DNA of 64,000 nt from Thermoplasmata archaeon (GTDB lineage: Archaea; Thermoplasmatota; Thermoplasmata; Halarchaeoplasmatales; Halarchaeoplasmataceae): NCBI GenBank assembly GCA_003552585.1, contig PUNK01000035.1:93-64092 (forward strand). The letters run 5' to 3'. Numbering within the stretch: position 1 is the stretch's first letter; every line of letters begins with the position of its first letter. Under the pieces are notes generated by a model. The model was not told where the DNA came from. It did no database searches and was given only the letters and a program-made list of their open reading frames with translations. Made by a program: the position numbers and the translations under genes. Shown one piece after another: positions 21,751-56,949 of this stretch.

Positions 21751-22293
21751 ATGCCTAGGTGGAAGAAAAAAAGCTCTGAACTGATCGCCAAGTCAACCCT
21801 TTTTACTATGCTAGAAGACGAGGTTATCCTACCCGATGGTACAGAGAAGAAATATACAATTGTAGACTTTCCAGATTTTGCAGGTGTACTGCCAATCTAC
21901 GAGGACCAGTTTGTTTTTGTACAAAATTACAGGTATCCTATCGATGAATTTGTACTCGAGATACCAGCAGGCCTTATCGATCAGGGTGAAACTCCTTTGG
22001 AGACAGCCAAGAGAGAATTGGAAGAAGAAACAGGATATGTTCTTAAAAATGCTCGAGACCTGTGTACTTATCATCCTATAGCCAGTTTGAATACTCAGAA
22101 AGCCTATCTTTTTTTAGGTGAAGTAGTGGAAGGAGGAAAAAAAGCTCCAGACAAAGGAGAAGATATGAAAACTTGTCTTTTAGATATTGAAGAAACTTAC
22201 GAGAGGCTGTACGATGGTGAAATAATCCATCCTCATACTATGATCGCGCTATTCTTTGCAAAAAGGAAGGTTGAGGCATTGAAAAGACTGTAA
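21751..22293 (+). CDS. Nudix hydrolase (ADP-ribose pyrophosphatase-like)
   Basis: Nudix box GLIDQGETPLETAKRELEEETGY. Confidence 0.8.
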   Translation: MPRWKKKSSELIAKSTLFTMLEDEVILPDGTEKKYTIVDFPDFAGVLPIYEDQFVFVQNYRYPIDEFVLEIPAGLIDQGETPLETAKRELEEETGYVLKNARDLCTYHPIASLNTQKAYLFLGEVVEGGKKAPDKGEDMKTCLLDIEETYERLYDGEIIHPHTMIALFFAKRKVEALKRL

Positions 22294-22340
22294 TTTTGCG
22301 AAAAAGTTTATACCTTTTGTATCTAATCAGCCGATAGTTT

Positions 22341-23591: not shown

Positions 23592-23603
23592 GGAGATCGT
23601 CAG

Positions 23604-26600: not shown

Positions 26601-27584
26601 AATGAGAAGAAAGAGGTATTAAATCTGTGGACTGAGGTAGGCGAAAAACTCGAGAGGTTGAGTACACTAGAGGAGGAATTAGAAGATAAGGAAGAAAAAT
26701 TAGATAAATTAGATGATGAGTTGTCTTCTAGGGAAAGAAACATCTCAAATAGAGAGAAAGCGGTGAGTGAAAAGGAAATAAAGTCAGCTGATAGGGAGAG
26801 AAGGATACAGGAACAGATAGAGGACTTGACTTCGGAGATGGAGAAGATACAGTCCTGGAGTGAAGCTGTCCTTGACAAGGAAGAGCAAGTACGTCAGTGG
26901 AAAGAGGATCTCGAGTCTTGGGAGGATGAACTTGAAGATCGAAGGGAAGAAATAGAAGATCAAAGACGTGAACTAAAAGAGATGAGAGAGAAAGTTCCCC
27001 AACGCTTGGAGGAGGTTAAGAAGAGAGAGAAGAAAGTAGAAAGGAAAAGAAGAGACATGATCAATTGGAAGGAAAAATTACAGGCCAAGGAAGAGCTGTT
27101 GAAGGACCAAGAAAGGGAGATGGAAGAGGAAAGAAAGCATCTAGAAGAGGTTAAGGAGAGTGCCATGAACTTCATGGACTATGCCCGATCAAAGAAGGCA
27201 AGAGAAGAGAAGAAATTACGTGAGCAGATAAAAAAGGAAAGGGAAAAATTGGAAAGAGAGAGACATTTGCTTGAAGAAGAGCTAAAAGAGCGTGAGAAAC
27301 GGTTGGAGGATAGGGAAGAGGATCTCGAAACAAAATCATCAAGGATAGAAGAGATCGAAAAGGATTTGAAGGTCCGTAAAGAAAAATTAGATGCCCAACA
27401 GAAGGATATCGTTGAGGAGAGGGAAGAACTAACTGAGATGTGGTCTCAAGTGGAGGAGGAGGCAGAGAAGGTAAAAGATCTTGAGGATTGGGAATCCGAA
27501 TTGAAAGTGAAAGAGGACAAATTGAAAAAGAAGAAAGAAAGGATCGATAGGATGAAGAAGCACTTAGATGACCTTCTCAGTTAG
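23604..27584 (+). CDS. giant (1326 aa) E/K/L-rich coiled-coil protein, no recognisable enzymatic domain
   Basis: Continuous heptad-like KEKELEKREEELEKE repeats throughout. No Walker motifs at either end. AGGAGA RBS 7 nt upstream. In the same frame as the preceding gene, separated by a single TAA. Confidence 0.7.
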   Translation: MGLREKARKLREEEKRIEEDEEKVTEELEEFQERLKELKEEIKELEEKREEVLEDVKKEQAELDELIEEKKEAEYEVEQLQEKEEELIQKREDLEKERKDLEYELKTKEKELEKREEELEKEINDLETFKTSLDEREEELAEKEKEIEELKEKGDVISTELEEIEKQKNELEKERTELEEEREELTELKKDIDEKEKELEEMEKDIKHKEEELEEIEEKRKELEKEEEQIGERERSLEKSQAELKSGFEELEQLKADLEEREQKLQDQKEEHEEALNEAELLKQQLEERESTLVEKEKEVDELEEELEEREKSLRGKKGALTRKENALTELEEQLNEKERMLEEKEEKLKEEVEEQLFEERKQELDELDGELSSKRDEREELESKLEDLQGELQSLEKRKDELQTLKEEVQQREKQVEEKEEHLEQREAEVSDKEELIDQAEERLEELEEREQELDSKEQKLTGLETHLEEREENLKDKEAEIDERQTELDQLETEITEKESSLAEREEKLDVRSSELDEKEGDLEEREEKVQKKEKDLDDLDTELGKEENRLEEWKAELEDWEEEVESKEEELDSLEQEVQKRVESVEEREEELAEIESGLDDKEKDLIEREEEVNSLKEELRLKEERLEERKKNLEDLESNLDGVEARLVKKEKKLEKFEDDLNERKDEIDKREEKLIAREKELERESELLEEKSGELSELNSELDNRKSRLDKREEGLDTREEGLAGWEEKLEQRESSVQKLENKLGSMENDLIKLESRLEKREAELKEWKERLNSREDELDEREKEIKETTDELKEKGKDLEKLEDRLDEREEELNSKESELEDKDNRLISEKKNLKLKEEGLHELREELADFETELDERNEKFEQNVQKKEEELEKKEASLEQREEILDEMEDKLSTKEKDLNQREGSLSHREEKLEERKSELEERDSTVSLLEDGLKELQDELEKWRNQLEEKEEEIELQSNKAEKQLKEAKRLDARLDQRENAIQENLEKVENEKKEVLNLWTEVGEKLERLSTLEEELEDKEEKLDKLDDELSSRERNISNREKAVSEKEIKSADRERRIQEQIEDLTSEMEKIQSWSEAVLDKEEQVRQWKEDLESWEDELEDRREEIEDQRRELKEMREKVPQRLEEVKKREKKVERKRRDMINWKEKLQAKEELLKDQEREMEEERKHLEEVKESAMNFMDYARSKKAREEKKLREQIKKEREKLERERHLLEEELKEREKRLEDREEDLETKSSRIEEIEKDLKVRKEKLDAQQKDIVEEREELTEMWSQVEEEAEKVKDLEDWESELKVKEDKLKKKKERIDRMKKHLDDLLS

Positions 27585-28578
27585 TCCTACGTATCATCAG
27601 ATCGACAAGGTCTTCTAGTATCTCTTTATAATATGTATCCTGAATGAACCTGATCTCCCGTTTAGCTTCATGAGCATATCTTCTAGCTTTCATTTTACAG
27701 TGTTCCAAAGAACTGCTATTTTTTAGAAGAGAAAGGACCTCTTCTATCTCATCCTCTGTGTTTTTCTCTTTATCTAGTAGATTTTTTAGACGTTCGGGGT
27801 TCTCAAGATTTTGAAGTGCATGGATAATGATAAACGTTCGCTTTCCTGAACGTATGTCACTACAAACAGGTTTGCCTATCTCGTCTTGATCTCCGACAAG
27901 ATCTAGATAATCATCCTGAAGTTGGAAGGCGATACCCATCTTTCTAGCGTATTCCCCCATCCTTTGGATATGTTCTTCGGGAGCACCTGCTATGATTGCC
28001 GCACCCTTAGTACAGGCCTGGAAAAGATGACTAGTTTTTTTCTCTATCATGTTTATAAATTCTTCTTCTGTAATATCGTAGGTGCTTTCAAATCGCATGT
28101 CTTCATCCTGCCCCTCGGCGACTTTTAGAACGGAATCTGCTACCTCATCTAGAAGGTAAGATAGAGCATCTCCTTCAAGTTCAGTGTGAGATAATACTTT
28201 AAAGGCTAATGCGAAGAGGGCATCGCCCACATTAATTGCGCTACCAACTCCTTCTCTCTTATATATAGTTTCTATTCCCCTGCGAACAGGATCTTTATCC
28301 ATTATATCATCGTGGACAAGAGTAAAATTGTGTATCAATTCCATACTTATTCCCAATGGCAAAGCCTTTTTTTCTTCGATCCCTAAGGCTCCTGCAGATA
28401 TCATGGCTAAAAAGGGACGCAGCTTTTTTCCTCCGGCTTTGGGGTACACTGCCATCAGTTCCCATAAAGGATGTTGTTCATCTCGATCGAAGAGCTCCTC
28501 GATCTCAGATTCGATCAGTATCTTCCTTTCCTTTATCTCTTCCATAAGATCTATCATGGTTAATCTCCCCCTGTCCAC
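27577..28578 (-). CDS. idsA: geranylgeranyl (polyprenyl) diphosphate synthase
   Basis: First aspartate-rich motif LVHDDIMD and second motif QLQDDYLD. Confidence 0.85.
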   Translation of the reverse strand: MDRGRLTMIDLMEEIKERKILIESEIEELFDRDEQHPLWELMAVYPKAGGKKLRPFLAMISAGALGIEEKKALPLGISMELIHNFTLVHDDIMDKDPVRRGIETIYKREGVGSAINVGDALFALAFKVLSHTELEGDALSYLLDEVADSVLKVAEGQDEDMRFESTYDITEEEFINMIEKKTSHLFQACTKGAAIIAGAPEEHIQRMGEYARKMGIAFQLQDDYLDLVGDQDEIGKPVCSDIRSGKRTFIIIHALQNLENPERLKNLLDKEKNTEDEIEEVLSLLKNSSSLEHCKMKARRYAHEAKREIRFIQDTYYKEILEDLVDLMIRRTN

Positions 28579-31834: not shown

Positions 31835-32643
31835 GTGCTTTCCTCCTTCTCGGCTAAATAATTTTTAGTGAAAAAATACAAGAAAACCAATATTGTAATC
31901 ACAACTAAAAGCGATCCTATACCCTGGAAGATACTGCTTCTAAATGCACGGAGTATAGCATCACCAACGAAGTAAGAGGTACTTGCGATCAGAAAACAGC
32001 CTGTAAATGATCCAATTATTATCGAAAACCACGTATGGTATTTGTTCATACCTATCACTCTACCCATTATAGAAGCTCCCACACCTCCACTTCCCTGGAA
32101 TGGGATCACCACGAAAAGAGCTATACCTAGATAAGCTAGCTTTTTGATCCATGGTTTTTCTTTCATTTTTTGAGCACCGAAGTTCTGGAATCGAACGATC
32201 CAATCGCCAATTAACGGAATCTTTTCAGCGATATAGAAATTCCACAGTAGGAAATATGAGGTTATAATATCGACGAACGCTATTGAGCTGGCAACAAGAA
32301 AGATGATTTGATGAGGGGCATAGAGTCCTTTTCTAGTTAATTCTGTAACCACTATCGGTATGACACTTTCCTTACCAGCAGGGGGGAAGAAGTATGCGAA
32401 GATGCCTCCACCCATCACCCAGAAGGTTGAGCCATTGGGGATGATAAGGTACAGTAAATAGATGTAAGTGAACCCGATCAGGAATGGATTGAAGAAAAGG
32501 AATAGTTTACCCCATATCGTTTTAAAGAACCCGTCTTCTTCGTATAATGTATCATCCATCGTTATAGGGAACTCATGGCTATTAAAATAACTTTTGGATA
32601 TTCTTAAAAAGAAACGGGTATCAATGCATGGTCCTTTTGCCAC
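31831..32643 (-). CDS. polytopic membrane protein (COG2426 / small multidrug export-like)
   Basis: About 6 TM segments. The first 28 codons overlap flpA, so the real start is probably MDDTLY at ~32559. Confidence 0.45.
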   Translation of the reverse strand: MAKGPCIDTRFFLRISKSYFNSHEFPITMDDTLYEEDGFFKTIWGKLFLFFNPFLIGFTYIYLLYLIIPNGSTFWVMGGGIFAYFFPPAGKESVIPIVVTELTRKGLYAPHQIIFLVASSIAFVDIITSYFLLWNFYIAEKIPLIGDWIVRFQNFGAQKMKEKPWIKKLAYLGIALFVVIPFQGSGGVGASIMGRVIGMNKYHTWFSIIIGSFTGCFLIASTSYFVGDAILRAFRSSIFQGIGSLLVVITILVFLYFFTKNYLAEKEEST

Positions 32644-33233
32644 CTGGATATCACGATAGGTTCCTTCACATCCAAGCCATTTTCTTTAAGTTCTCTTTTC
32701 ACTTCCTGATAGATCTTTGTCGGCTCCTTACTAATATCGATGCTGCGCGCTTTAACGGCTATCATACCCAGTGCTCCTTTTTTTAGGACACCTATGTTTT
32801 TCAAGAAGATGTTCGACTGGTCCCGTTGTGCTATATCTTGGTACAAAAAGTCGACCTTATCAACTATATCGTTGTAGTTACCAGGATGTCTTGCATCGGC
32901 AAGGATAGGAAAAATGTTGGGCCGTTTTTGGGATAATGAAAGCAGCTTTCTATAGGCTGTGGGGGATACCTCAACTGCAAAGATGCGTCCACTGGCTGCC
33001 ATGTCTGAAAGATGACTGACCGTGGTCCCTTGACCGGCACCTAGGTAAAGGATATCGCTATCTTCTTTAATCTGTAGATTTCCTCCTAGCTTGAGATATG
33101 CCGAAAGTTTACTCCTATGTGGATTCCAGTGCCTATATTCTACACCATCGAAGCTTCGTAATTCTTCCCCGTAAACGGCCTTTCCGGGAACAAGATTCTT
33201 GGTAAAATACTCGCCACTGTGTTCTTTTATCAT
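32604..33233 (-). CDS. flpA: fibrillarin-like rRNA/tRNA 2'-O-methyltransferase
   Basis: ILYLGAGQGTTVSHLSD SAM-binding motif and GMIAVKARSID. Near full-length similarity to archaeal FlpA. Confidence 0.85.
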   Translation of the reverse strand: MIKEHSGEYFTKNLVPGKAVYGEELRSFDGVEYRHWNPHRSKLSAYLKLGGNLQIKEDSDILYLGAGQGTTVSHLSDMAASGRIFAVEVSPTAYRKLLSLSQKRPNIFPILADARHPGNYNDIVDKVDFLYQDIAQRDQSNIFLKNIGVLKKGALGMIAVKARSIDISKEPTKIYQEVKRELKENGLDVKEPIVISRWQKDHALIPVSF

Positions 33234-34321
33234 CTCATCTCTTCTATAACTTGTGGGAATTCTTCTGCAAATACCTCGATTTCCTCTTGAGGTATGGTGA
33301 ATGAAACTCTTATGAAATTTTCACCGGCGGTCTTCGAAACATAAGTTCCCGCCCGCACGAAGATATCGTGTTCCTTCAACAGGACCTCCTGTACATCATC
33401 AGGATGTAACCCGGTTTCCTCTATATCGATTATGAACATGTTTGTGTTGGAAGGGTAAACCGGCAGGTGAGTCCCATCCGTTTTTTCGACAGCTTCCTTT
33501 ATTATGGCTTGATTTTTTCGAGATTGTTCAAGCATGTCCGAAAGCCACTCATCCTTCGTTTCAAGTGCTACTTTTGCACCAACCTGGGCGAGGATATTGG
33601 AAGATAATGGATTCGACCTGTATCTACTTATTTCATCGAACATATGATCAGGGGTTATCAACGAACCTAAACGCATTCCTGCAAATCCACAGTTTTTGGA
33701 GAAAGAGTAGATTATCAGAGTCCTTTCCGGTACGAAATCGGTTGCAAGAGTATGGTCGAAAGCAAAATCTCTGTATGTGATATCGTCTATTACCCATAGG
33801 TCGTTGTCCTCGGCTATCTCAGATATGCCTTTAACTTCATCTCTCGTATACGAACTTCCTAGAGGATTAAGGGGATCGATCAAAAGTATAGCCTTCGTTG
33901 AATCATCCACCCTTTCGTTTATGTTCTCCACGGTCATACGATAGGGCTCTCGATAGACGTTTATCTCCTCGAGGTTCGTTTTACAGAGTTCTATCTGATG
34001 ATGGATCGGCATGAAGCTTGGGTCCGAAGCGATAACACTATCACCTGGATCGAACAGCGCTCGAGTCATGAAATAACTCGCTTCGATCGCACCATTGGTG
34101 ATGATACTGCCGAACCCTTCTTCAAGGCCGAGATCTCTTAGAAGGGCTTCTTTCAACCCCTTCAATCCCTGCTGATGTGGGTAAAGGGCGTATTTTCTTT
34201 CTTTCACAGCATCTATGATCGCCTCTTGGATGAGGGGTGAAGTTTCCAACTCATTCGTATTCTGGCTCATCCAGATTATTTCATCTTCCCGGTCGTGAGC
34301 ATATCTAAAGGGATCTTCCAT
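33230..34321 (-). CDS. class I/II PLP-dependent aminotransferase
   Basis: SFSKNCGFAGMRLG (SxSK PLP-lysine motif); 363 aa. Confidence 0.75.
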   Translation of the reverse strand: MEDPFRYAHDREDEIIWMSQNTNELETSPLIQEAIIDAVKERKYALYPHQQGLKGLKEALLRDLGLEEGFGSIITNGAIEASYFMTRALFDPGDSVIASDPSFMPIHHQIELCKTNLEEINVYREPYRMTVENINERVDDSTKAILLIDPLNPLGSSYTRDEVKGISEIAEDNDLWVIDDITYRDFAFDHTLATDFVPERTLIIYSFSKNCGFAGMRLGSLITPDHMFDEISRYRSNPLSSNILAQVGAKVALETKDEWLSDMLEQSRKNQAIIKEAVEKTDGTHLPVYPSNTNMFIIDIEETGLHPDDVQEVLLKEHDIFVRAGTYVSKTAGENFIRVSFTIPQEEIEVFAEEFPQVIEEMR

Positions 34322-34409: not shown

Positions 34410-34505
34410 GCTCCTGTGGTGTAGTCCGGCCAATCATTTCGGCCTTTCGAGGCCGATCCCGGCCGTAGATAGCCGAATACCTGGGTTCGAATCCCAGCAG
34501 GAGCA
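34410..34505 (+). tRNA. tRNA-Glu(UUC) with a 21-nt intron (mature length 75 nt)
   Basis: Hand-folded: acceptor GCTCCTG/CAGGAGC. D-arm GTGTAGTCCGGCCAATCAT is typical of archaeal tRNA-Glu. Anticodon stem TCGGC/GCCGA, loop CTTTCGA (anticodon TTC). T-arm CTGGG-TTCGAAT-CCCAG. Discriminator A. Confidence 0.75.
34450..34470 (+). other. tRNA intron (inserted at/after position 37-38 of the anticodon loop)
   Basis: Removing the 21 nt (AGGCCGATCCCGGCCGTAGAT) restores a canonical 7-nt anticodon loop and 5-bp stem. The intron duplicates the GGCCGA of the stem, consistent with a bulge-helix-bulge fold. Confidence 0.55.
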
Positions 34506-34507
34506 TT
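34489..34507 (+). repeat. direct repeat copy 1 (3' end of tRNA-Glu, GAATCCCAGCAGGAGCATT)
   Basis: Identical 19-mer recurs at 34596-34614. Confidence 0.7.
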
Positions 34508-34595
34508 AAAATTTTTTTAATGCGACTATAGTGATGAGAACCTCGGTTCGTGAACAAATTTACAATTTGTGAGCGTTTGGAATCTTTTCCGAACA

Positions 34596-34614
34596 GAATC
34601 CCAGCAGGAGCATT
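34596..34614 (+). repeat. direct repeat copy 2, att-like partial duplicate of the tRNA-Glu 3' end
   Basis: GAATCCCAGCAGGAGCATT, 88 bp downstream of copy 1, in non-coding DNA. Confidence 0.7.
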
Positions 34615-34714
34615 TTAAACTCTTCAAAAGTGCAAGTAAGTGGAAAAATCCTCTTATTTTTCAACGAAGGAGTATACCTTTTTAGCGTTCTTTTCTACTC
34701 TTTTATTCTAATTG

Positions 34715-35650
34715 TCAATTTTCCCCAAGCACATTGATAAGATAACCCATGGTCTCGATATCTTTTCTGTTATGCTCTATTATGGGTATCAGTGTACCTG
34801 GATTTTTCTTACGCAAGTAAATCTCGTAAAAATGTGGTACCAACGCGCTGGAAATATCCTGTTCTCTTTTATGTCCAAGAACGTGTTCCTCTAAAGTGAC
34901 CAGTTTGTGGTTTGGAACATTTTTCAGTTTTCCTCTAACCATATGTAAAAGATCGAAGTGAGGTTCTTCAATCTCTCCTTCGATACCTAAAACGTCCATC
35001 CTCTCTCTGATAAATCTAGAATCAAAACTTCTTCCGTTAAAACTGACAAGGTATTTTTTCCTTTTTTTCTCTTTTAAAAACTCAAGGATAACGGCAGCTT
35101 CTTCATCCAAGTCTCTAGCAAAGTATTGTCTTATATCCAATCGTCCATTTGACCAGGTTCCAACACCTATAAGAAATGCGGGTCTATATCTGAGACCCAT
35201 TGTTTCAATATCGAAGAAGAGCAGCTCTTCTGGTTCAACCAATCCCATCAGTGCATGTGTTAAAGGATGTGATATGCTGTGCCACCTCTCGATCCTTTTT
35301 TGTAGTCTTCGTACATTTTTTACTTCTAGATCTTTGAGGATAGGCTTTACCTTTTCACAATAACAATCGTCATCTCGCAACTTATCCAGTCGATCTAAGC
35401 CACAGCTTTTCAGAGAGTTCACCGTTTTTGGTCCCACCCCTTTAATCAATCTTAAGTCATTCATTATGGCATTTTTTGCATATTCTTCTGATGGGAGTTT
35501 AAGCTCCATCCTTCCTCCCGATTCGATCATGTAATAGCATCCTCTCGTATTGAGCAGTTCTTCTCCCTGAACTACTTCTTCCAACTTTTGGTCCCGGTGC
35601 TCTGACATCAACCTCCATTTCAACTTTTCGATCTTGTAAATATCTGACAT
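34715..35650 (-). CDS. DEDD-type 3'-5' exonuclease domain protein with HhH motif (RNase H-like, YprB-like)
   Basis: HhH LIKGVGPKTVNSL. Exo motifs FFDIETMG (I), SFNGRSFD (II) and IIEHNRKDI (III). Confidence 0.6.
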   Translation of the reverse strand: MSDIYKIEKLKWRLMSEHRDQKLEEVVQGEELLNTRGCYYMIESGGRMELKLPSEEYAKNAIMNDLRLIKGVGPKTVNSLKSCGLDRLDKLRDDDCYCEKVKPILKDLEVKNVRRLQKRIERWHSISHPLTHALMGLVEPEELLFFDIETMGLRYRPAFLIGVGTWSNGRLDIRQYFARDLDEEAAVILEFLKEKKRKKYLVSFNGRSFDSRFIRERMDVLGIEGEIEEPHFDLLHMVRGKLKNVPNHKLVTLEEHVLGHKREQDISSALVPHFYEIYLRKKNPGTLIPIIEHNRKDIETMGYLINVLGEN

Positions 35651-35666
35651 TTAGCTATATCCCCTT

Positions 35667-36098
35667 TTATCTTACTTCTAAATTATCTTTTAGTCCCCTG
35701 ATCTTTTTCACCACTGTATCAGGGTCAGCTACACCTTTGAAGGTGACCTTGATCTCCCCGTAAGTTCCTATCCTTACATCTCCAAAGTTGATCAGTTCAC
35801 CCAGATTTCCCTTGTATATGCTGACCGACTTAACATCTTCAATATCCTGCTTTTCCATCCCCTTACCAAGGTGCAGCGATCTATTACTGTAAACACCTTT
35901 GTTTGTTATCCAATAGTCGGAAGTTAGCTTATCCAAGGAGATAATGACAAACAGTGCAAGCCCGAGTAAGAATAAAATGGGGAATACGAGTCCAAAGAAG
36001 ATCCAAAACAAAGCTGAAACTAACCAAAGTGTGTAACTCTTCCAACACCTTTGACCGTACCAAATAACCTTCTTATCTTTCAGTCCTTTTTTTATCAT
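35667..36098 (-). CDS. membrane-anchored bacterial-type PH-domain (bPH_2/DUF304-like) protein
   Basis: Two N-terminal TMs followed by a ~90-aa beta-rich domain resembling YdbT/bPH. Confidence 0.45.
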   Translation of the reverse strand: MIKKGLKDKKVIWYGQRCWKSYTLWLVSALFWIFFGLVFPILFLLGLALFVIISLDKLTSDYWITNKGVYSNRSLHLGKGMEKQDIEDVKSVSIYKGNLGELINFGDVRIGTYGEIKVTFKGVADPDTVVKKIRGLKDNLEVR

Positions 36099-36111
36099 AT
36101 ATCATTCTCCG

Positions 36112-38700
36112 TCATTCGAGGAATTCAGGAGGAAGATAGTCTGTCTCCTCTTCCTCATACAACTCCTCTTCGTCGAATTCTAGATCTTCTAATTCCTCTT
36201 TCTTTGTAAAGAAAACAGCCAAGGCGATCCCGCCGGCAACAACTATAACTATAGATGAGATCACCATCATTATGTCCAATGATGTGGTCCGAATCCTGTA
36301 CATCCTTATCTCACCTAAATCCATTTCCTCTCCCGGAGGTACTGTAACTTCTCTTTTAACCGTTTGATATCTTTCTTTTTGGAAGGTGATTTCATACTCA
36401 CCAGCATACGTCTCTATTTTAAATCTTCCATCATGATTAGTGAACACGACATCTCCAGATTCTAGCTCCACCTTAACATCGTGGATCGGATCACCTCTGT
36501 GGTCGACTACAACGCCGGTCAGGTTTCCACTTCTCATGGTTGTGAATGACCATGAATAGGTCTCTTCCAATTCATTCCCTGCAAGGTCGCTACCGTTAAC
36601 AAATATAGTATAATTAGTACCGTATTCTACATCGTTTTCTGGAGCCGCTCTTACTCTATCTTCATCGACCCATGTATGATTGCCTATGGAAAGTTTATCT
36701 GAACTTATATTTACCGATCCTTGATCCATCTCTTCGGAGAATGTGATGTCGATAACAAAATCTCTAGAGACCTCGTCTCCCCTGGGTCGAGCATAGAGAA
36801 CCTCAGGAATGGTGTGATCGACGAATATTTGTAGAGATATGTTCGCTTCGTTACCCGCTCTATCTACAGCTTCCATTCGTATAATATATTCTCCTTCAGT
36901 TAAATTCTCAAACCGATGTGTTCCCTTTGGTGGCACTTCAAACCAATCGCCTTCATCCAGTCTTACCCTTACATCTTCTACACCTGAATTATCGTCGGTC
37001 ACGTTCCACTCCAAAAGGATGAAATCTTTATTAGTGTAATAACCGTCATATGGATAGATGATCTCTATCTCTGGTGACACATCGTCTGGTGACCCTTCCA
37101 TTACCTGGGTGTGAAGGCTTTCTCCAACATCATTGAATGCTGATAACCTGTAATAATATGTTTCATTGATCTCCACTTCGGTATCCGTGTAATTAAACTT
37201 CCCAATATCTTCGATCTCTTCGAGGAGAGAAAAGGAGGTAGGTTCATCACCTTTGTATATCCGATACCCAAGGAGTTCAGTTTTACCCATGGATCGAGGT
37301 TCATCCCACACGATGTTCAGGTATTCTTTACCAGGATCAACTGATGCGTTTCTAGGGTGACTCGGGATGACAGGCATGGATGGTTCTACGAGCGGTAGGT
37401 AATCCTTTGCATCACTTCCAGTGATATTGTATGCTTTATCCACCATCCCATCCTCATCTTCATCGGGTTCGGTCCACTCACTCCAGTGATTCCCAATATC
37501 TGAGGAGTTCCATCTGTTCAAACTAGTGTCATCTCTTCCCTGGCTTTTTGTTTCGTTGTTCAGCTCTCGTATCCCATTGTTATACATAAAAGCGTTTTCA
37601 TAGATCAAATTTTTTGATGATCCCTGGGTCAATATCATACCCTTCCCTGGTGCCCTCATGATCCGGTTATGATGTATGGTATTATTATGGGAATTCCCAA
37701 CCGTTACACCGTTGTTATAGATGATGTTGTTGGATATCATATTGTGGTTCGAGTGAGATTCAAGAACCAAACCAGCTTGTCCATTGTCGATGATTTTGTT
37801 GTCGGCTACAGTCACATGATCAGAGTTGTGAAGGATGATACCCTCTCTACCGTGTTCAAATATATTATTCTCCAAAGTGATATTATTAGATGAATGGATC
37901 CTTAGACCCGCACGAGGACTACTTCTGAATTCGGAGTTTGATACATCTATATCTGAGGAATATGCTAAGATCGATTCAGTATCTGATAGGTCTAAATTCT
38001 GCAGGGTTGCATAGCTAACGTTGGCAAATATGACCTGTCCCGCATTTGAAATTTCCATCCAACCCAAGTTTTCATTGGCGTAGTATTCGATCGGTTTGCC
38101 AGAAAAGGTGTTATCAACCATGATTTGATTTGCCAGAGTTTCTCTATCTAACGTGATGGTCAAGGGGCCATCATATAACGAATTGCCTTCAAATCTATTA
38201 TTTATTGAGCCCTCTATAGATATGCTTACTTCGTTGCCTTCGAAATTATTATCTTCTACTATGTTAGATGCGGAACTCCTGATGAGCAATCCTATGTGGT
38301 TGTTGTTGAAATCACTATCTATCACCCTAACATTACTGCTTTGATGGAGCAGCAATCCTGCTCCCTTTTTCCATATACTATCATCATGAGAAGCATTTCT
38401 GAATTCACAACTTTTAAAATCGGTGTGAAGTGTTGTATTGCCCATATAAAAAGAGTTCCCATCCCCTTCAAAAACATAATTTTCTATAATAAAAGGGTCT
38501 TGTTCTGTACCCTCTCCCTCTATATTTTCTTCTTCTACAAAATCCAACAACTCATCGTCGCTATCAATTCTGACACCTTTTTCATTATGATCATCTTCTG
38601 CAGTACTATTATCTAAAAGGTACATTGAACTGGAGCCGAAGATGATGATCGCTATGAGAACGATCGATATCAGTTTTTGTTCTGTTTTCGCCATTACCAT
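36112..38700 (-). CDS. secreted right-handed parallel beta-helix (NosD/PbH1-like) surface protein with Ig/FN3-like and CarbopepD_reg-like domains; C-terminal TM + acidic tail
   Basis: Signal peptide. Multiple PbH1 repeats (NNHIGLLIRSSASNIVEDNNFEGN..., NIFEHGREGIILHNSDHVTVADNKIIDNGQAGL...). GVVVDHRGDPIHDVKVEL CarbopepD-like module. C-terminal TM then EELEDLEFDEEELYEEEE. Confidence 0.7.
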   Translation of the reverse strand: MVMAKTEQKLISIVLIAIIIFGSSSMYLLDNSTAEDDHNEKGVRIDSDDELLDFVEEENIEGEGTEQDPFIIENYVFEGDGNSFYMGNTTLHTDFKSCEFRNASHDDSIWKKGAGLLLHQSSNVRVIDSDFNNNHIGLLIRSSASNIVEDNNFEGNEVSISIEGSINNRFEGNSLYDGPLTITLDRETLANQIMVDNTFSGKPIEYYANENLGWMEISNAGQVIFANVSYATLQNLDLSDTESILAYSSDIDVSNSEFRSSPRAGLRIHSSNNITLENNIFEHGREGIILHNSDHVTVADNKIIDNGQAGLVLESHSNHNMISNNIIYNNGVTVGNSHNNTIHHNRIMRAPGKGMILTQGSSKNLIYENAFMYNNGIRELNNETKSQGRDDTSLNRWNSSDIGNHWSEWTEPDEDEDGMVDKAYNITGSDAKDYLPLVEPSMPVIPSHPRNASVDPGKEYLNIVWDEPRSMGKTELLGYRIYKGDEPTSFSLLEEIEDIGKFNYTDTEVEINETYYYRLSAFNDVGESLHTQVMEGSPDDVSPEIEIIYPYDGYYTNKDFILLEWNVTDDNSGVEDVRVRLDEGDWFEVPPKGTHRFENLTEGEYIIRMEAVDRAGNEANISLQIFVDHTIPEVLYARPRGDEVSRDFVIDITFSEEMDQGSVNISSDKLSIGNHTWVDEDRVRAAPENDVEYGTNYTIFVNGSDLAGNELEETYSWSFTTMRSGNLTGVVVDHRGDPIHDVKVELESGDVVFTNHDGRFKIETYAGEYEITFQKERYQTVKREVTVPPGEEMDLGEIRMYRIRTTSLDIMMVISSIVIVVAGGIALAVFFTKKEELEDLEFDEEELYEEEETDYLPPEFLE

Positions 38701-38875
38701 TCCTATACCATTTAAAATATTCCTTATTATTATAACTTTTGTATTGGATCCTGTGTTCCAGTGTGTATGGATATGGGGTTCGATAGAACACCCTCCTCAT
38801 AGGTCTTCCCCAAATCGCCAGGTATGAAGAAACTATAAATATTCCCCGTTGATTAGACCTTTAAGAGGATAAAAT

Positions 38876-39268
38876 ATGGATATGGCGGAATTAAAAGATA
38901 GGTTCCTGATGGCCTTTAAAGATAATAAAGATATTTGGGCCTATATAGCATCTATCTCTGCCATCCTGGTCACAATATCTGCCATACTTATCGTCTTTGC
39001 TGGAGATACGGGTATCTTTTTGGGTGCGATTATTATATCATCAGCCATAACTTTTCTTGTAGCCTCTTTGTTTGCGCTTGTTTTTGGAATTATTGGAGGG
39101 CCGATCATCGGCTTGTTTTTTGGTTTGTTCTTTGGAACTTATATCAGCTTTTGGATAGGTGGTCCCCAAGCGGCATATGTATCGTCCTTTGCCTCACCTA
39201 TTGCAGGCGTTGTTTCTGGTTATTTGACGGGAAAAGTAGGTAATACCTACGTTCCATCCGATGAATAG
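38876..39268 (+). CDS. small Gly-rich 3-TM membrane protein, possible partner of the FtsZ-like GTPase
   Basis: 130 aa; ends 24 nt before the FtsZ-like gene on the same strand. Confidence 0.45.
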   Translation: MDMAELKDRFLMAFKDNKDIWAYIASISAILVTISAILIVFAGDTGIFLGAIIISSAITFLVASLFALVFGIIGGPIIGLFFGLFFGTYISFWIGGPQAAYVSSFASPIAGVVSGYLTGKVGNTYVPSDE

Positions 39269-39292
39269 TTTTATATCGATTAAATCATTTAC

Positions 39293-40234
39293 ATGACCGA
39301 GGTCTTAATGGTAAAGATTAAAAGGTTCGGGGCGCAGACTGAAGATCCGATAAAGAGACCGGACACCATGATCTTTGGTATTGGAGGTGCCGGTAGGAAT
39401 ATTTTATCTTCGATGATCGACACTCCACACCTTTCTAATGTGGACAAATTTGAGGTCGGGTGTGTAGATATGCTCCCCAACCTACCGTTTATACAGATCG
39501 ATAAGCGAGATATGAAGGAATCTTTTGATTCAAAATCTTCCTTCGGGATACGTCCCCCTAACCCAACCGAAGAAAAGCTGATCCGCAGGATCAAAAATGC
39601 TGATATTCTATATCTATTATCCGGTATGGGTGGACGGACAGGAAGCTGGACCACTCCTACATTAGCTCATATCGGAAAGAACAAAGGGGCCTTCACCATA
39701 GCCCTGCTTGCAATGCCTTTCGAAACAGAAAATACAGGGCGATGTCGTTTTGCAGAGGAGGCTAAGGATAGGGTTGGAGAACATGCAGACATCTTGGGCG
39801 TGTTCAGCAACAGTCGATTACTAAGTCTAAATCCACATCTACCTATGACAAAAGCGTTCGACGTTATGAATAATATAATCAGTCTTCCCGTGCAGGACTT
39901 AAATGCTGTTGTGACAAAGGATGATCTAAAAACTCTAAAAGTATTCTGTGACGGTGTCGATGAGTTCAGGATAGGTGCGGGGTATGGTAGGGGTAGAGAG
40001 AGGGGTAAACGGGCCTCCGAAGAGGCCTTACGTTCTCCATGGTTGGATGATTTTTCCGACTACCGTACCATACTCAGTGTTGTCACTAGTGGTGTAGGTT
40101 CAGCCGAGCTCGAGGCCAGCGATGCACTCGATATAATCAGTGAAAAGGCACCGAAGGCCAACATCCTCTGGGGACTTAGAAAAAACCCCGAGCTGGGGGA
40201 AAGAACAAAAGTGACCTTATTGGCTGGAAAATAA
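39293..40234 (+). CDS. divergent FtsZ/tubulin-superfamily GTPase (FtsZ-like paralog, 313 aa)
   Basis: T1 GIGGAGRN. T4 tubulin signature degenerated to GMGGRTGSWTTP. T5 PFETENTGRCRF. SNSRLL (FtsZ NDxLL). C-terminal domain EALRSPWL...VTLLAGK. Lacks the FtsZ C-terminal linker and tail. Confidence 0.7.
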   Translation: MTEVLMVKIKRFGAQTEDPIKRPDTMIFGIGGAGRNILSSMIDTPHLSNVDKFEVGCVDMLPNLPFIQIDKRDMKESFDSKSSFGIRPPNPTEEKLIRRIKNADILYLLSGMGGRTGSWTTPTLAHIGKNKGAFTIALLAMPFETENTGRCRFAEEAKDRVGEHADILGVFSNSRLLSLNPHLPMTKAFDVMNNIISLPVQDLNAVVTKDDLKTLKVFCDGVDEFRIGAGYGRGRERGKRASEEALRSPWLDDFSDYRTILSVVTSGVGSAELEASDALDIISEKAPKANILWGLRKNPELGERTKVTLLAGK

Positions 40235-40257
40235 ATTGAAAAGAAAGGGGTTGGGGA

Positions 40258-41268
40258 CTATTCCTTTTTGCGGAATACGTAGTACACTGCTGGAATAGCT
40301 ACCGCCACGAGCAGAAGTATGAAACCAGCATGTGGTATATCCTCTGCTGCAGATACTTCTATCCATTGTGTGCTGAAGTTCTCAACGTGGAACACGTAAA
40401 CTGCACCTCCACCGACACTGGCGTTTGATCGGTCCAGTCCTTCATAATTCACCGCATCACTGGTCTCTATCTCCAAGTCGCCTTCAGCGTCTGCGAGATG
40501 TTCGTCTGCAAAGGCCCTGTTCATGAGTATAGATACATGGTTGGTATGGTTATTATCGGTAACCTCGATCCTCAGTACGCCGTCTTCAAAGGAAACGGTC
40601 ACCATATCTACACCTCTTGGATCACCCGCATTCACCACTGCAGCGGCCCATGGTTCGTATCCTTCTACCTTTAGAAACGTGACTGCACCGTGAGCAGCAG
40701 CGTTCTTGGCGGAATCGTAATATCCCTTTGCATCTTCGACAGGTGGTACAAAGTCCGACGGAGGTGTTCTACCAGATACTTCTATCCATTGTGTGCTGAA
40801 GTTCTCGATATGGAATACATATACCGCTTGGTCAGCCGCAATCTCGTGTGCTTCGTTCAATCCTTCGTAATTCACGGCATCGCTGGTCTCTATCTCTAAA
40901 TCACTCTCAGCCTCTGCTAAATGTAGATCTGCAAATTCTTTGTTCATTAATATTGTAACGTGATTTGTATGGTTTGAATCCGTTGCTTCGATCCTCAATA
41001 CACCGTCTTCGAAGGAAACGGTTACCATATCTACACCCCTTGGATCACCGGCATTCACCACCATGACTGCCCACGGTTCGTATCCTTCTACTTTGAGGAA
41101 TGAAGCCGCTCCTTGACTAGCAGCTTCCTCCACCATGTCAGTATGTACATCGATGGATATGTCATAGTCCCCTGGATCGATAGCCATCGTCTGTGCAGCT
41201 GTAGCTAACAGCAATACAAGCATGATGACGAACATCGATCTTATCAGGTTGTTTTTTCTCATCTTCAT
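40258..41268 (-). CDS. secreted protein made of two near-identical ~140-aa repeats, C-terminal TM anchor
   Basis: Signal peptide. FLKVEGYEPWA..VVNAGDPRGVDMVTVSFEDGVLRIE.TD.NHTNHV.ILMN..FAD.HLA.AE.DLEIETSDAVNYEGL occurs twice. TM + RKKE at the C-terminus. Confidence 0.6.
   Translation of the reverse strand: MKMRKNNLIRSMFVIMLVLLLATAAQTMAIDPGDYDISIDVHTDMVEEAASQGAASFLKVEGYEPWAVMVVNAGDPRGVDMVTVSFEDGVLRIEATDSNHTNHVTILMNKEFADLHLAEAESDLEIETSDAVNYEGLNEAHEIAADQAVYVFHIENFSTQWIEVSGRTPPSDFVPPVEDAKGYYDSAKNAAAHGAVTFLKVEGYEPWAAAVVNAGDPRGVDMVTVSFEDGVLRIEVTDNNHTNHVSILMNRAFADEHLADAEGDLEIETSDAVNYEGLDRSNASVGGGAVYVFHVENFSTQWIEVSAAEDIPHAGFILLLVAVAIPAVYYVFRKKE
40350..41120. repeat. intragenic tandem duplication (~420-bp unit x2, ~85-90% nt identity)
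   Basis: For example AGATACTTCTATCCATTGTGTGCTGAAGTTCTC at ~40352 and ~40774; the long shared blocks continue. Confidence 0.7.
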
Positions 41269-41340
41269 TCACCTATCTATACAAAAGTCATGTCAATATA
41301 AAGTAGATTATGGTACAATTATGAAACAAAGAAAAGGGTT

Positions 41341-41652
41341 TTAGCCGAAGATGGTACCTACACCTGCAGCTGCGTCTTCATCAGCTTTTTTAATGGCCTT
41401 GAATATATCTTCCCCTTCATCGATCTTCTCGATATCCTTTTCGGAGAAGATATCCTCGGCCTTCTCCAGTGCCTTTTGACTGCCTTCGATGAGCACGTAT
41501 GTTATATCTTCATCGAAACCGAGACTTTCACCATCTCTTATACTCGCACTCTGTTTGCTCACCAGCTCATCGGAAAGAGCTTCAGAGATCGCTGACTTTT
41601 TCTCGTTGGGAACTTTGAATATGAAGTACATATTTTGCCTCGACAAACTCAT
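41341..41652 (-). CDS. small acidic protein with ribosomal-stalk (P1/aL12)-like C-terminal tail
   Basis: 103 aa. C-terminus ...KKADEDAAAGVGTIFG resembles the conserved archaeal P1 C-terminus (EEEALAGLxALFG). The N-terminal part is not clearly P1-like. Confidence 0.4.
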   Translation of the reverse strand: MSLSRQNMYFIFKVPNEKKSAISEALSDELVSKQSASIRDGESLGFDEDITYVLIEGSQKALEKAEDIFSEKDIEKIDEGEDIFKAIKKADEDAAAGVGTIFG

Positions 41653-41667
41653 AACATAAAAATGTTA

Positions 41668-43398: not shown

Positions 43399-43471
43399 AT
43401 TTTAGCTTGTCGTTTAATTATATCCAAAAGTAACACTTTTATAACAACCTTCTTTCACCCCTTCTTATACC

Positions 43472-43993
43472 ATGAAAGATGATAGCCATACATGTACATA
43501 TATGATTGAGGATGATACGAGTGAAACGAAGATCATCGTAGAGTGTGGAGAGTGTTCTAATAGTTTTTCGTTTAGATCATGCCTTCCTGAGATAGTAAGA
43601 TCGTGGGACAAGGTATCTAATTCAGATAAATTGATTTTTTCAGATACCTTTGAACGTAAGTACTCCAAAGGAACCGTTGAGATCATCTCATTCTTTCTTT
43701 CTCTACACGAACAATTTAAAAGAAATTCACGACGTGATCCTGATAAAAAAGAATGTAAGAAATGTGTTATTTCACCAAAAAGGATCTATTCTAGCTTGAT
43801 CGTTGACTTGGAGAAAGATCCCGAAGATATGTTTGAGTCGATCAACTCTGCAGCCCTCGAGCTTATGAAATCCAGCGGATGTCGGTCATGCAGGAGAGCA
43901 ACTATTGAGGAGTTAAGGGTGTTGTCTTCTTCTTTACTTGATATGAACTCGAGAGTATTATCGAAAGCATACGGTATTGTAGGTGAGGGATAG
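43472..43993 (+). CDS. hypothetical Cys-pair protein (possible Zn-binding), overlaps the start of the secretion ATPase
   Basis: 173 aa. Cys pairs CGEC, CKKC and CRSC. 11-nt overlap with the downstream gene. Confidence 0.4.
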   Translation: MKDDSHTCTYMIEDDTSETKIIVECGECSNSFSFRSCLPEIVRSWDKVSNSDKLIFSDTFERKYSKGTVEIISFFLSLHEQFKRNSRRDPDKKECKKCVISPKRIYSSLIVDLEKDPEDMFESINSAALELMKSSGCRSCRRATIEELRVLSSSLLDMNSRVLSKAYGIVGEG

Positions 43994-50495: not shown

Positions 50496-50501
50496 TCCAC
50501 C

Positions 50502-52157: not shown

Positions 52158-52160
52158 CTT

Positions 52161-52862: not shown

Positions 52863-52867
52863 TCATA

Positions 52868-56948: not shown

Positions 56949-56949
56949 A

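Follow-up and report, generated by a model that had tools for sequence, protein, structure and literature searches.

A second copy of the tRNA-Glu 3' end in a Thermoplasmata archaeon is probably the 3' end of a conserved, cloverleaf-like structured unit

Introduction

Does a tRNA gene that is followed closely, on the same strand, by a perfect copy of its own 3' end mark the edge of an integrated element, or can such a copy belong to something else? The question is raised by the DNA analysed here, a stretch of 64,000 nt (the window) from a Thermoplasmata archaeon, in which a tRNA-Glu gene and a second copy of its 3' end lie side by side (Table 1). Islands of tyrosine integrases leave tDNA fragments as attL and attR, the principle on which Islander is based (PMC4383910, PMC9897764), and an earlier note on this DNA interpreted the repeat as the attL/attR scar of an island that was either degraded or could not be delimited. 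Our results argue for a different explanation, i.e. that the second copy is probably the 3' end of a conserved structured unit (unit A), one of a tandem family and most likely a plus-strand RNA, rather than a recombination scar. Relatives are referred to below by locus number (L003 etc.) where they have to be told apart.

Results

An intron-containing tRNA-Glu(UUC) gene

The Rfam tRNA model matches the plus strand over the entire gene at 49.8 bits (gathering score 29) and puts an insert of 24 nt at the anticodon loop. With the unspliced sequence, ARAGORN found the same span and named no isotype, and with its intron option it misparsed the gene as Arg(tcg) i(42,9); after removal of the 21-nt intron AGGCCGATCCCGGCCGTAGAT it called tRNA-Glu(ttc) with a canonical 75-nt cloverleaf, the anticodon TTC being at 34446-34448, the discriminator A at 34505 and CCA not being encoded. 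Orthologues of the gene occupy the same syntenic spot, upstream of the aminotransferase gene, a conserved upstream neighbour of the tRNA that lies outside the element and serves as a synteny anchor.

As judged from comparison with the orthologues, the 21-nt insertion is an archaeal bulge-helix-bulge intron at position 37/38. Its boundary is ambiguous by one base in the window sequence, an A being present on both flanks; the intron-less orthologue L005 reads CTTTCG/AGCCGA (here and below the slash marks the intron boundary) and thereby fixes the boundaries. The bulges in the window are C36 G37/A and A U/A38, the central helix is formed by C32-U35 with GUAG (three pairs and one U.U), and the inner helix by GGCCG with CGGCC. 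A 20-24-nt intron is present at the same site in 30 orthologues, all of which have a 4-bp central helix with 4/4 paired and two 3-nt bulges, together with an inner helix of 3-6 bp that covaries (GACC with GGUC versus GGCC with GGCC). Thus, both the Glu isotype and the bulge-helix-bulge intron proposed in the earlier note are borne out. The motif of archaeal tRNA introns has been described (PMC7714728); position, size (20-24 nt), 3-4-3 geometry and inner helix are the same here, and nothing is unusual except for the one U.U in the window's central 4-bp helix.

Table 1. Features at and around the tRNA-Glu gene, with positions in the window
Feature	Positions	Strand	Basis or remark
Class I/II aminotransferase gene	33230-34321	-	Pfam PF00155; 40 related loci
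tRNA-Glu(UUC) gene	34410-34505	+	Rfam tRNA match; ARAGORN after intron removal; syntenic orthologues
tRNA-Glu intron, 21 nt	34450-34470	+	Canonical 37/38 site, bulge-helix-bulge; orthologue comparison
Repeat copy 1	34489-34507	+	tRNA G57-A73 plus TT
A/T-only spacer	34506-34521	+	T7 tract plus TATA-like A/T box; sequence and relatives
Unit A, predicted 91-nt conserved structured element	34522-34612	+	Covariance model R1; pair counts; single-sequence MFE
Repeat copy 2	34596-34614	+	Forms the end of unit A and the 3' strand of P1; T4 tract behind it
Unit B, shorter related unit	34632-34674	+	Model R2 match
RNase_H_2 superfamily protein gene	34715-35650	-	Pfam PF13482; syntenic in L005

The direct repeat and its surroundings

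The 19-mer GAATCCCAGCAGGAGCATT occurs exactly twice in the window, on the same strand and 88 nt apart, as the earlier note had it, with an expected count of 0.04 and two or more occurrences in none of 100 shuffles. The first copy comprises the 3' part of the T loop, the 3' strands of the T stem and acceptor stem, the discriminator and then TT. The spacer and the second copy recur at 100% identity in a contig that Logan assembled independently (L001, SRR490150), so the repeat is not an assembly artefact.

Searches for the hallmarks of an island were negative, and these include the two by which the earlier note wanted its scar interpretation judged, a third copy and a break in composition. No third copy is present in the 64 kb, even allowing three mismatches, and none of ~35 related loci has a distant second copy. 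The region 34615-47700, for which the earlier note had suggested a composition check, has a GC content of 0.422 versus 0.421 upstream and a tetranucleotide r of 0.955 versus 0.943, i.e. there is no discontinuity. Pfam scans covered the main ORFs over 30.9-64 kb; in agreement with the earlier note, they gave no integrase domain for any scanned protein between 34.7 and 64 kb, a span of 29 kb downstream of the tRNA, and none was recognised when the tRNA-proximal ORFs of ~20 relatives were read by eye. A viral or plasmid attP for the 19-mer was also rejected: the tRNA pattern is absent from IMG/VR, a degenerate 17-mer gave 49 single matches there (46 outside called tRNAs, which mostly read as coding, and three in unrelated tRNAs), a phage search returned one spurious Microvirus match and a plasmid search none.

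Downstream, the RNase_H_2 gene is convergent with the units and is an ordinary chromosomal neighbour, not an integrase. Synteny with L005 covers the first five genes downstream; other relatives have a different gene order 3' of the tRNA, implying that the site is rearrangement-prone, and transposase genes (IS200-like and IS5-like, named by eye) lie 3' of the tRNA in L011 and L018.

Unit A has a conserved, cloverleaf-like fold

The tRNA gene is followed by the 16-nt A/T-only spacer TTAAAATTTTTTTAAT, the equivalent of which in relatives reads YTTTTTAC..TTTTAAAAAT, after which unit A starts; the unit thus takes in the region between the repeats together with the second 19-mer copy. In the model, unit A is a cloverleaf-like fold of a terminal helix and three hairpins. 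The terminal helix, P1, pairs 34522-34535 with 34598-34611, combining a 5' strand with the tRNA-identical sequence, from T-loop G57 to the discriminator, as its 3' strand; tandem G.A pairs occur at 3:70 and 4:69. The hairpins are P2 (GAACC with GGUUC, 34538-34549), P3 (~34550-34574, flanks GUGA..GAGC) and P4 (UUUGGAA with UUCCGAA, ~34577-34594).

Covariance model R1 matches the unit in the window at 93.5 bits (E 6e-20), and the single-sequence MFE reveals the same four-way structure (z -1.95). In the R1 alignment, which was fitted to the model and comprises seven distinct sequences from about three lineages, 84.5% of cells are paired and 10 pairs have changed on both sides, a result reached in 0 of 500 shuffles, with slid controls giving at most two. 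P1 is imperfect, with 71.6% of cells paired and covariation that rests on two events. The only mismatch between a copy and its tRNA (L014, G71 to A) is offset by C2 to U in the 5' strand of the unit, and the U:A pair at 6:67 in the window corresponds to C:G elsewhere. Five of the seven distinct units have exactly the same core, GAGAACCTCGGTTC, and the hairpin is kept in the other two. G.U pairs outnumber A.C by 16 to 1, which indicates RNA from the plus strand; unit A is thus most likely a cloverleaf-like plus-strand RNA of ~91 nt, as predicted from the model. The likeness of the 5' end of the unit to the 5' end of the tRNA reaches significance in the window and in L003 and L058, but in no other member. 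Of the T arm, the window unit has the 3' half only, GAATCCCAG, the 5' half being missing.

Known classes of element do not fit unit A. With the window, L003 and L049 as queries, Rfam at both gathering and permissive (E up to 10) thresholds returned only tRNA, the rest being chance-level. An archaeal C/D box sRNA was considered in view of GUGAUGA at 34531-34537 and rejected; the next 12 nt are the conserved hairpin P2, not an unstructured guide, the D position is CCGA, ACGA or CUGU in several members, and box C of L003 is GGGAAGA. A hammerhead-like CUGAUGAG..CGAAAC has core positions that vary (GGGAAGAG in L003), as judged by eye. Also rejected were a split, permuted or multi-intron tRNA, the unit having neither the 5' acceptor strand GCUCCUG nor the 5' strand of the T stem; a reverse-transcription primer-binding site, the copy being same-sense and the opposite strand lacking TGG for CCA; and a K-turn, as the tandem G.A pairs come without a 3-nt bulge.

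Unit A belongs to a tandem family that follows its own tRNA

Comparison of the loci indicates that units A, B and C are a lineage-specific tandem family located 3' of tRNA-Glu in a hypersaline/soda-lake clade of Thermoplasmata. At least three lineages of Thermoplasmata have unit A immediately 3' of tRNA-Glu, and R1 matches it nowhere but at that position (nine loci); added protein look-ups and model searches brought no examples beyond these. It is missing from most relatives, and is therefore dispensable, and the distribution of units A, B and C is patchy, with gains and losses among close relatives.

A 17-nt copy of the tRNA tail, 107-177 nt downstream (start to start), is present in the window, L003, L058/L063, L009, L013 and L014, i.e. 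after six of ~30 tRNA-Glu genes versus none of eight other tRNAs in the loci. The aminotransferases of these species are only 68-78% identical to that of the window, and the copy is identical to its own species' tRNA variant (CCCAG-CAGGAGC, CCCGG-CGGGAGC or CCCGA-CGGGAGC) in five of the six, the exception being L014. In L003, L058 and L013 the identity extends 5-7 nt into the 3' flank. In the window, the tRNA and both units share a derived A67.

Model R2, trained on relatives only, matches the window at 34623-34677 (36.2 bits, E 2.5e-5). The unit B so identified consists of a 5' module GCAAGUAAGUGG, a hairpin (GAAAAAU with AUUUUUC) and a 3' end, AAGGAGUA, that is a degenerate copy (7/9) of the tRNA 3' end GCAGGAGCA. 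Unit A precedes unit B not only in the window but also in L003 and L058, so the array is older than the split between them; these two relatives have an A-B-C-A' array, and L003 a second, degenerate copy of unit A at 36.5 bits. L049 has three to five near-identical tandem units, the only ones among relatives to keep a complete T arm, with the same 3'-flank sequence after the tRNA and after every unit. Across the family, units are 43-160 nt in size.

Discussion

The 5' strand of P1 is tRNA-5'-end-like in the window and in L003 and L058, and the family may have arisen by partial tandem duplication of the tRNA-Glu gene. Gene conversion or unequal crossing-over would keep adjacent direct repeats identical, such that copy and tRNA change together; RNA structure alone leaves the tRNA-identical 3' strand of the T stem unaccounted for, so a DNA-level process is needed too. 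If the unit is expressed, the tRNA-like terminal helix and the T tract could give it tRNA-like RNA ends via RNase P, tRNase Z or T-tract termination. The T7 tract of the spacer appears terminator-like for archaeal RNA polymerase. Lying between tRNA and unit A, a tract of this type should stop most read-through in archaea, which argues against simple co-transcription of the two. The sole TATA-like box is 1-16 nt upstream of unit A, and would place the start site inside the unit, with the 5' strand of P1 excluded; this counts against the RNA model.

We consider it unlikely that the repeat is the remnant of site-specific integration, either of an element that entered the T-loop region of tRNA-Glu and was mostly deleted, leaving attL, ~88 bp and attR, or of a 107-bp unit mobilised in trans as a CIME-like non-autonomous element. 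Integration would explain a complete tDNA with a same-orientation 3' fragment, the left edge of which is in the T loop in every lineage (T-stem-region sites are present in Islander for 1836 of 3919 islands; PMC4383910), and, if repeated, would also account for the identity of copy and local tRNA; the variable gene order 3' of the tRNA and the transposases of L011 and L018 are consistent with it too. However, neither the 29 kb downstream nor the ORFs of relatives yielded an integrase, the related loci have no distant second copy, there is no compositional break, and site and unit are absent from the viruses and plasmids searched. The interval itself is at odds with a scar, being 88 bp versus kilobases for known islands, conserved across species with compensatory changes, and paired with the supposed attR copy, as are the identity that runs into the 3' flank in L003, L058 and L013 and, in L049, the same 3' flank behind the tRNA and each unit. 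An ancient integration may be the ultimate origin of the family.

The small local duplication that the earlier note gave as its fallback comes closer, but is incomplete, given the age of the duplication, its presence in several species, its structure and its lasting identity to the tRNA. In its neutral form, a functionless pseudo-tRNA fragment that arose by slippage or unequal crossing-over and is now decaying, it is very improbable: the patchy gain and loss of units, the degenerate copies (the second unit A of L003, the 3' end of unit B in the window) and the near-identical units of L049, which are typical of recent unequal crossing-over, are all as expected, but neutral DNA would not remain alignable at 68-78% protein identity, nor would it keep three hairpins through substitutions on both sides, a core identical in most distinct units with the hairpin kept in the exceptions, and the excess of G.U over A.C. 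There is also little to be said for the units acting as DNA rather than RNA, whether as a repeated module of terminator, promoter and leader (made up of the tRNA 3' end, the T tract, the A/T box and the GCGAC.. module) or as an array of protein-binding sites, e.g. ones resembling origin-recognition boxes (ORBs). Truncated units, with spacer and 5' module only, do lie directly before protein-coding genes in L003, L058, L004 and L008, and the A/T box is too near the first base of the unit to be its own promoter; in the window, though, no plus-strand gene follows the units, the next gene being convergent, and hairpin covariation with G.U pairs favours RNA. The sequence CCAGTGGAAA, present in unit B of relatives, is the core of the consensus for archaeal ORBs, CTTCCAGTGGAAACGAAAGGGGT (PMC4153887), whereas unit B of the window has GTAAGTGGAAA only. 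We rejected a replication origin (ORB array), as the likeness is limited to this 10-mer core in relatives, the window has no more ORB-like matches than expected by chance (25 versus 27.6), there is neither a G-string nor an inverted pair, and Pfam scans of 30.9-64 kb gave no Orc1/Cdc6 domain.

A conserved structured unit ending in a tRNA copy thus accounts best for the locus, and a bolder version of this interpretation can be offered tentatively. Units A and B might represent a hitherto undescribed family of cloverleaf RNAs derived from tRNA-Glu and kept in register with the tRNA by concerted evolution; they could be mimics of its acceptor/T 'top half', e.g. a decoy for, or regulator of, an enzyme or toxin that recognises this half, or a regulatory RNA dependent on tRNA processing, like E. 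coli rtT. We regard this as possible but doubtful. If the unit is expressed, its RNA would be a candidate mimic of tRNA and could be curated as a new RNA family. In any event, the locus is a caution for island finders, because the usual sign of integration, a tRNA gene with a perfect 3' fragment on the same strand, here marks a small conserved structured element. The lineage-specific substitutions common to tRNA, unit A and unit B provide a compact natural example of concerted evolution.

Comparison with known systems

With integrase islands the locus shares a complete tRNA gene and a displaced, direct 3' fragment that starts in the T-loop/T-stem region; unlike them, it has no integrase, cargo, foreign composition or attP partner that we could find, and its 88-bp interval is conserved and structured. 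The closest known analogue of unit A is the tyrT operon of E. coli, with its repeats and the rtT RNA, RttR (PMC3318445), an sRNA encoded immediately 3' of a tRNA, in the same orientation and in tandem units, with a perfect 19-nt copy of that tRNA's 3' end as its own end. In E. coli K-12, which we checked, the 19-nt 3' end of tRNA-Tyr is present six times at tyrT-tyrV, and the annotated RttR begins 7 nt past tyrV and ends exactly on one copy. The same arrangement is found in the window, where the unit starts 16 nt after the tRNA, ends in an exact copy of its tail and is followed in tandem by unit B. We observed no sequence or structure homology of the window to RtT RNA, no Rfam family but tRNA reaching threshold. 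The bacterial copy includes the encoded CCA, and the units there are 178 bp long and near-identical, one overlapping a small ORF (tpr), whereas the archaeal units are of 43-160 nt, divergent and cloverleaf-like. They can also be compared across species, and thus add cross-species covariation, which is missing in the E. coli case, while extending an old and poorly understood curiosity to uncultured archaea.

Unit A further resembles mascRNA and the t-elements of plant mitochondria, in which a non-canonical cloverleaf or acceptor-like stem likewise lies beside genes; for t-elements, cutting by RNase P and RNase Z has been proposed (PMC1920247). A conserved T arm, GGTTCRANYCC, is the feature by which t-elements are recognised; unit A of the window lacks a complete one despite its cloverleaf-like fold. 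The end formation proposed here for unit A would nevertheless parallel that of both rtT/RttR in the tyrT operon and the plant mitochondrial t-elements.

Results

The tRNA-Glu gene, its intron and the repeat

The earlier note described an intron-containing tRNA-Glu gene followed by a perfect 19-bp repeat of its own 3' end, and our analyses confirm both parts of that description. The Rfam tRNA model matches the gene with 49.8 bits and a 24-nt insertion at the anticodon loop. ARAGORN without intron search finds the same interval but leaves the isotype unnamed ('tRNA-???'), and with intron search it parses the interval wrongly as Arg(tcg) with a 9-nt intron; once 34450-34470 is taken out, it returns a normal cloverleaf, tRNA-Glu(ttc). 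The tRNA-Glu of this clade is likely to be wrong or missing in automated annotation. Among 32 distinct orthologous genes, gathered with the aminotransferase gene as anchor and by scanning metagenomes for a DNA pattern, the single one without an intron (locus L005) reads CTTTCG followed directly by AGCCGA, which therefore places the intron between tRNA positions 37 and 38, give or take one A; the other 31, including the window's, carry introns of 20-24 nt there.

The central helix pairs tRNA nucleotides 32-35 (CUUU) with intron RRRG, with all four pairs present in 30/30 relatives and one U.U in the window; it is bordered by 3-nt bulges, C36-G37-A and N-N-A38, and the inner intron helix of 3-6 bp alternates among orthologues between GACC/GGUC and GGCC/GGCC. 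By comparison with the bulge-helix-bulge motif as set out in PMC7714728, the intron is a predicted substrate of the archaeal splicing endonuclease, and is biologically ordinary; on this point the note had read the gene correctly.

The 19-mer GAATCCCAGCAGGAGCATT, which spans tRNA positions G57 to A73 and two further T, occurs twice in the window (chance expectation 0.04; 0/100 shuffles reach two), with no further copy there when up to 3 mismatches are allowed. The window sequence is present as an NCBI contig of 73.7 kb and also in Logan assemblies of run SRR490150. The Logan sequence is split between two contigs, whose ends fall in the tRNA gene or where it finishes (window 34446 and 34512), and the downstream contig reproduces the spacer and second repeat copy exactly.

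Features of the tRNA-Glu site and its upstream neighbours (window positions)
Feature	Position	Strand	Description
Fibrillarin gene	32604-33233	minus	follows the aminotransferase gene; 1.2 kb from the tRNA
Class I/II aminotransferase gene	33230-34321	minus	upstream neighbour of tRNA-Glu
tRNA-Glu	34410-34505		intron-containing
Repeat copy 1	34489-34507		in tRNA 3' end
Unit A	34522-34612	+	91-nt element
P1			terminal helix; first 14 nt of the unit, GCGACUAUAGUGAU, with the tRNA-identical strand AUCCCAGCAGGAGC
P2			GAACC/GGUUC
P3			6-9-bp hairpin with extension G-Y-G-A...G-A-R-C
P4			AGAAU../..AUUCU-like
Repeat copy 2	34596-34614		unit A 3' end
R2 match	34623-34677		unit B covariance model; 36.2 bits, E 2.5e-5
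Unit B	34632-34674	+	shorter element

Unit A in relatives

Downstream of the gene in related loci, too, the final 17 nt of tRNA-Glu recur, at start-to-start distances of 119 nt (L003), 121 nt (L058/L063), 127 nt (L014) and 177 nt (L009, L013), and the intervals between tRNA and copy are homologous across these species. Each copy follows its own species' version of the T/acceptor stem (CCCGG-CGGGAGC or CCCGA-CGGGAGC; CCCAG-CAGGAGC in the window), the sole difference in L014 being G71 to A. The identity block begins at G57 throughout, except in L003, where it begins two bases earlier, and reaches 0-7 nt into the 3' flank, giving blocks of 19 (window), 26 (L003), 22 (L058), 24 (L013) and 17 nt (L009). 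The core GAGAACCTCGGTTC is identical in 5/7 distinct units, the exceptions varying in the hairpin loop only (CTT for CTC in L058; a longer loop in L014).

R1, a covariance model made from four unit A members, matches solely directly 3' of tRNA-Glu: in the window (93.5 bits), L003, L058/L063, L014, L009, L013 and L002/L052 (clipped by contig ends), as well as a degenerate second copy in L003. Within the fetched loci, a copy of the last 15 nt lies within 600 nt of 6 of ~30 tRNA-Glu genes versus 0/8 other tRNA genes. Rfam comparison of the archaeal units gave no family besides tRNA.

Predicted structure of unit A

RNAalifold, the single-sequence minimum free energy fold (z -1.95) and a manual model concur on a four-way, cloverleaf-like fold, with tandem G.A pairs in the P3 extension, which also has a second pair that varies between U.G, C:G and U:A. 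In a model-fitted alignment of 7 distinct sequences, which are related and aligned to fit the structure, standard pairs fill 84.5% of cells and 10/34 pairs change on both sides, values matched by 0/500 shuffles; with partners slid by 1-3 columns, at most 2 both-sided pairs remain. In P1, the G71 to A change of the L014 copy has its counterpart in C2 to U at the 5' end of the unit, and at pair 6:67 the window has U:A where four others have C:G. Paired cells hold 16 G.U versus 1 A.C, an imbalance that a + strand RNA would be expected to show, but DNA hairpins or a minus-strand RNA would not.

Units B and C, and other tRNA-derived arrangements

Unit B, found in L003, L058, L008, L011, L019, L035 and L128, has three parts: a 5' module (GCGAsCCAGUGG), then a hairpin (GAAAAAU/AUUUUUC) and finally a 3' end, GCGGGAGCA, identical to the last 9 nt of the tRNA in the relatives that bear it. 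R2, trained on relatives only, also matches in the window, and the order tRNA-A-B is therefore common to the window, L003 and L058; the arrays of the latter two go on with unit C and a truncated A, ahead of a small zinc-ribbon gene. The window's unit B ends in AAGGAGUA, with A at the equivalent of tRNA position 67, as in the window's tRNA and unit A, versus G in other lineages. That one lineage-specific change recurs in three neighbouring elements would be accounted for most simply by gene conversion or unequal crossing-over between direct repeats. The same process would appear in a different form in L049:7341-7932 (metagenome contig Ga0272441_10019334), where 3-5 tandem units of ~150 nt, 91-99% identical, directly follow tRNA-Glu. 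Each has the full T arm of tRNA-Glu (CTCGGGTTCGAATCCCGACG), a 58-nt insert within the acceptor 3' strand, GGGAGCA and then the 3' flank of the tRNA itself, and parts of the units fold into a mini tRNA-like element.

Unit C (L003:2236-2300, L004, L005, L008, L019), not found in the window, reads TTTACATATTTCTGAACGCTAGTGAAGAAATTGTAAAAAGGAG-hairpin-CTGCGCA, is always fused to a preceding GCGGGAGCA, and contains CUGA...GUGAAGA, similar to C'/D' boxes. Unit B of L003, L008, L019 and others holds CCAGTGGAAA, the core of the archaeal origin-recognition box consensus (window equivalent GTAAGTGGAAA, 34637-34648); the G-string, inverted partner and a nearby orc1 are all missing from its context. Another type of tRNA-derived fragment at the same site is a T-arm-like hairpin (for example CTGGGGTTCAAATTCCCCCAG or GGGGGTTCACATCCCCC) in the first 40 nt past tRNA-Glu in L016, L022, L041, L061 and L066, where units A and B are absent. 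The syntenic slot upstream of the aminotransferase gene holds tRNA-Val(GAC) in L029, L030, L033 and L040 (53-56% identity, labelled Methanomassiliicoccales/Thermoplasmata) and, in L020, an intron-containing tRNA-Ala(GGC); the slot's tRNA has therefore been swapped during evolution.

Host and neighbourhood

The window opens within an archaeal 23S rRNA, of which it holds the last 294 nt. The aminotransferase's nearest relatives (62-78% identity) come from metagenome-assembled Thermoplasmata of soda-lake and hypersaline sediments, and those at 49-56% identity carry the label Methanomassiliicoccales or Thermoplasmata. The fibrillarin/aminotransferase neighbourhood is kept across the clade; Pfam scans of 30.9-64 kb found no Nop5 domain. 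Almost every relative has its own gene order 3' of tRNA-Glu, in contrast to the conserved 5' side; by eye, ORFs resemble an IS200/IS605-type TnpA in L011 (268-762 nt past tRNA-Glu) and an IS4/IS5-type transposase in L018 (1406-2353 nt past it).

Pfam matches in ORFs of 34.7-64 kb include an RNase_H_2 superfamily protein, a NosD/beta-helix surface protein, an FtsZ/tubulin-like protein, an M14 peptidase, a type IV pilus-type ATPase with its membrane partner, and succinate dehydrogenase-like and hydrogenase/heterodisulfide-reductase-like genes. Judged from translations, 47665-49061 may encode 2-oxoacid:ferredoxin oxidoreductase subunits. The block at 50500-60000, of raised GC (0.48), encodes succinate dehydrogenase/fumarate reductase-like, CCG-domain, NiFe-hydrogenase and HdrA-like proteins and is an Mvh/Hdr-type module within a Thermoplasmata genome. 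Strand composition is extreme at 22000-28000 (GC skew up to 0.51, AT skew 0.47), which covers a 416-aa zinc-ribbon protein and a 1326-aa protein; the latter's Pfam matches are only coiled-coil-like (RNase_Y_N, Exonuc_VII_L), and it is therefore probably a long low-complexity or coiled-coil protein. In a 2232-aa ORF at 2079-8777, an STT3 oligosaccharyltransferase N-terminal domain is accompanied by many CarboxypepD_reg and Ig-like repeats.

Discussion

Alongside the observed conservation, fold, strand bias, co-variation with the tRNA and array order, we consider it rather likely that unit A yields a small RNA from the + strand and descends from the tRNA-Glu gene, with tRNA-like ends and repeats kept identical by DNA exchange. 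Its ends would pair into a terminal helix like that of a tRNA, with the tRNA's own sequence as the 3' strand; the 3' end would be set by the T tract after the copy, and possibly by tRNA-end-processing enzymes, as for the tRNA. DNA-level exchange would hold the 17-26-nt direct repeats identical, and the 5' strand would keep pace via compensatory change. Transcription, processing, repeat conversion and any cellular role are what we infer. The weak points of the RNA reading are an imperfect P1, a sole TATA-like box too near the first base of unit A for a start there, and a T7 tract between tRNA and unit A, which should terminate archaeal RNA polymerase; the unit A family is, moreover, small and dispensable. 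That unit A is instead a neutral duplication seems very improbable beside the both-sided pair changes, and we give equally little credence to a DNA-level cassette beside the preponderance of G.U over A.C.

The repeat had also been read as the att-like scar of a tRNA-targeting integrase. Islands of this kind carry an integrase, and their ends are marked by a tRNA gene that has been restored and a fragment displaced from it (PMC4383910); archaeal examples span 9-23 kb, one with 44-bp repeats (PMC9897764). The orientation of the repeat and its left edge within the T loop fit integration, but no other feature does: the copies lie 88 bp apart, and Pfam scans of ORFs in 34.7-64 kb find no integrase, as the note itself had remarked. 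The region 34615-47700 is compositionally unremarkable (GC 0.422 vs 0.421; tetranucleotide correlation with the rest of the window the highest, 0.955), the first five genes after 34615 are syntenic with L005, and none of ~35 relatives' loci has a second, distant copy within 10 kb. IMG/VR holds no copy of this tRNA-Glu; the degenerate 17-mer has 49 matches there, all single, 46 outside called tRNAs (mostly in apparent coding sequence) and 3 in unrelated tRNAs, and phage and plasmid collections gave nothing relevant. Island features are thus missing, and the two outcomes that the note had set against its scar, no third copy (window) and no compositional break (34615-47700), are those obtained; an integration remnant behind the repeat is unlikely.

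The main value of the finding lies in a caution for island prediction and in a candidate new archaeal RNA family; the site is a tRNA-linked, tRNA-derived structured unit of a kind already known but little studied. In plant mitochondria, t-elements resemble a tRNA or its acceptor stem and are cleaved by RNase P and RNase Z (PMC1920247). They are a second functional analogue; the window's unit A lacks their recognition T-arm motif. In E. coli, 178-bp repeats that include the tRNA 3' end lie behind the tyrT operon. In K-12 MG1655, the 19-nt tRNA-Tyr 3' end occurs six times at tyrT-tyrV, the downstream units recur every 178 bp, and the annotated sRNA RttR starts 7 nt past tyrV and ends exactly at one of the tRNA-3'-end copies. 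A 2024 preprint sums up rtT RNA as taking part in the processing of the tyrT transcript and probably also in the stringent response. E. coli rtT/RttR is the closest known case, and its architecture is common to the archaeal units.
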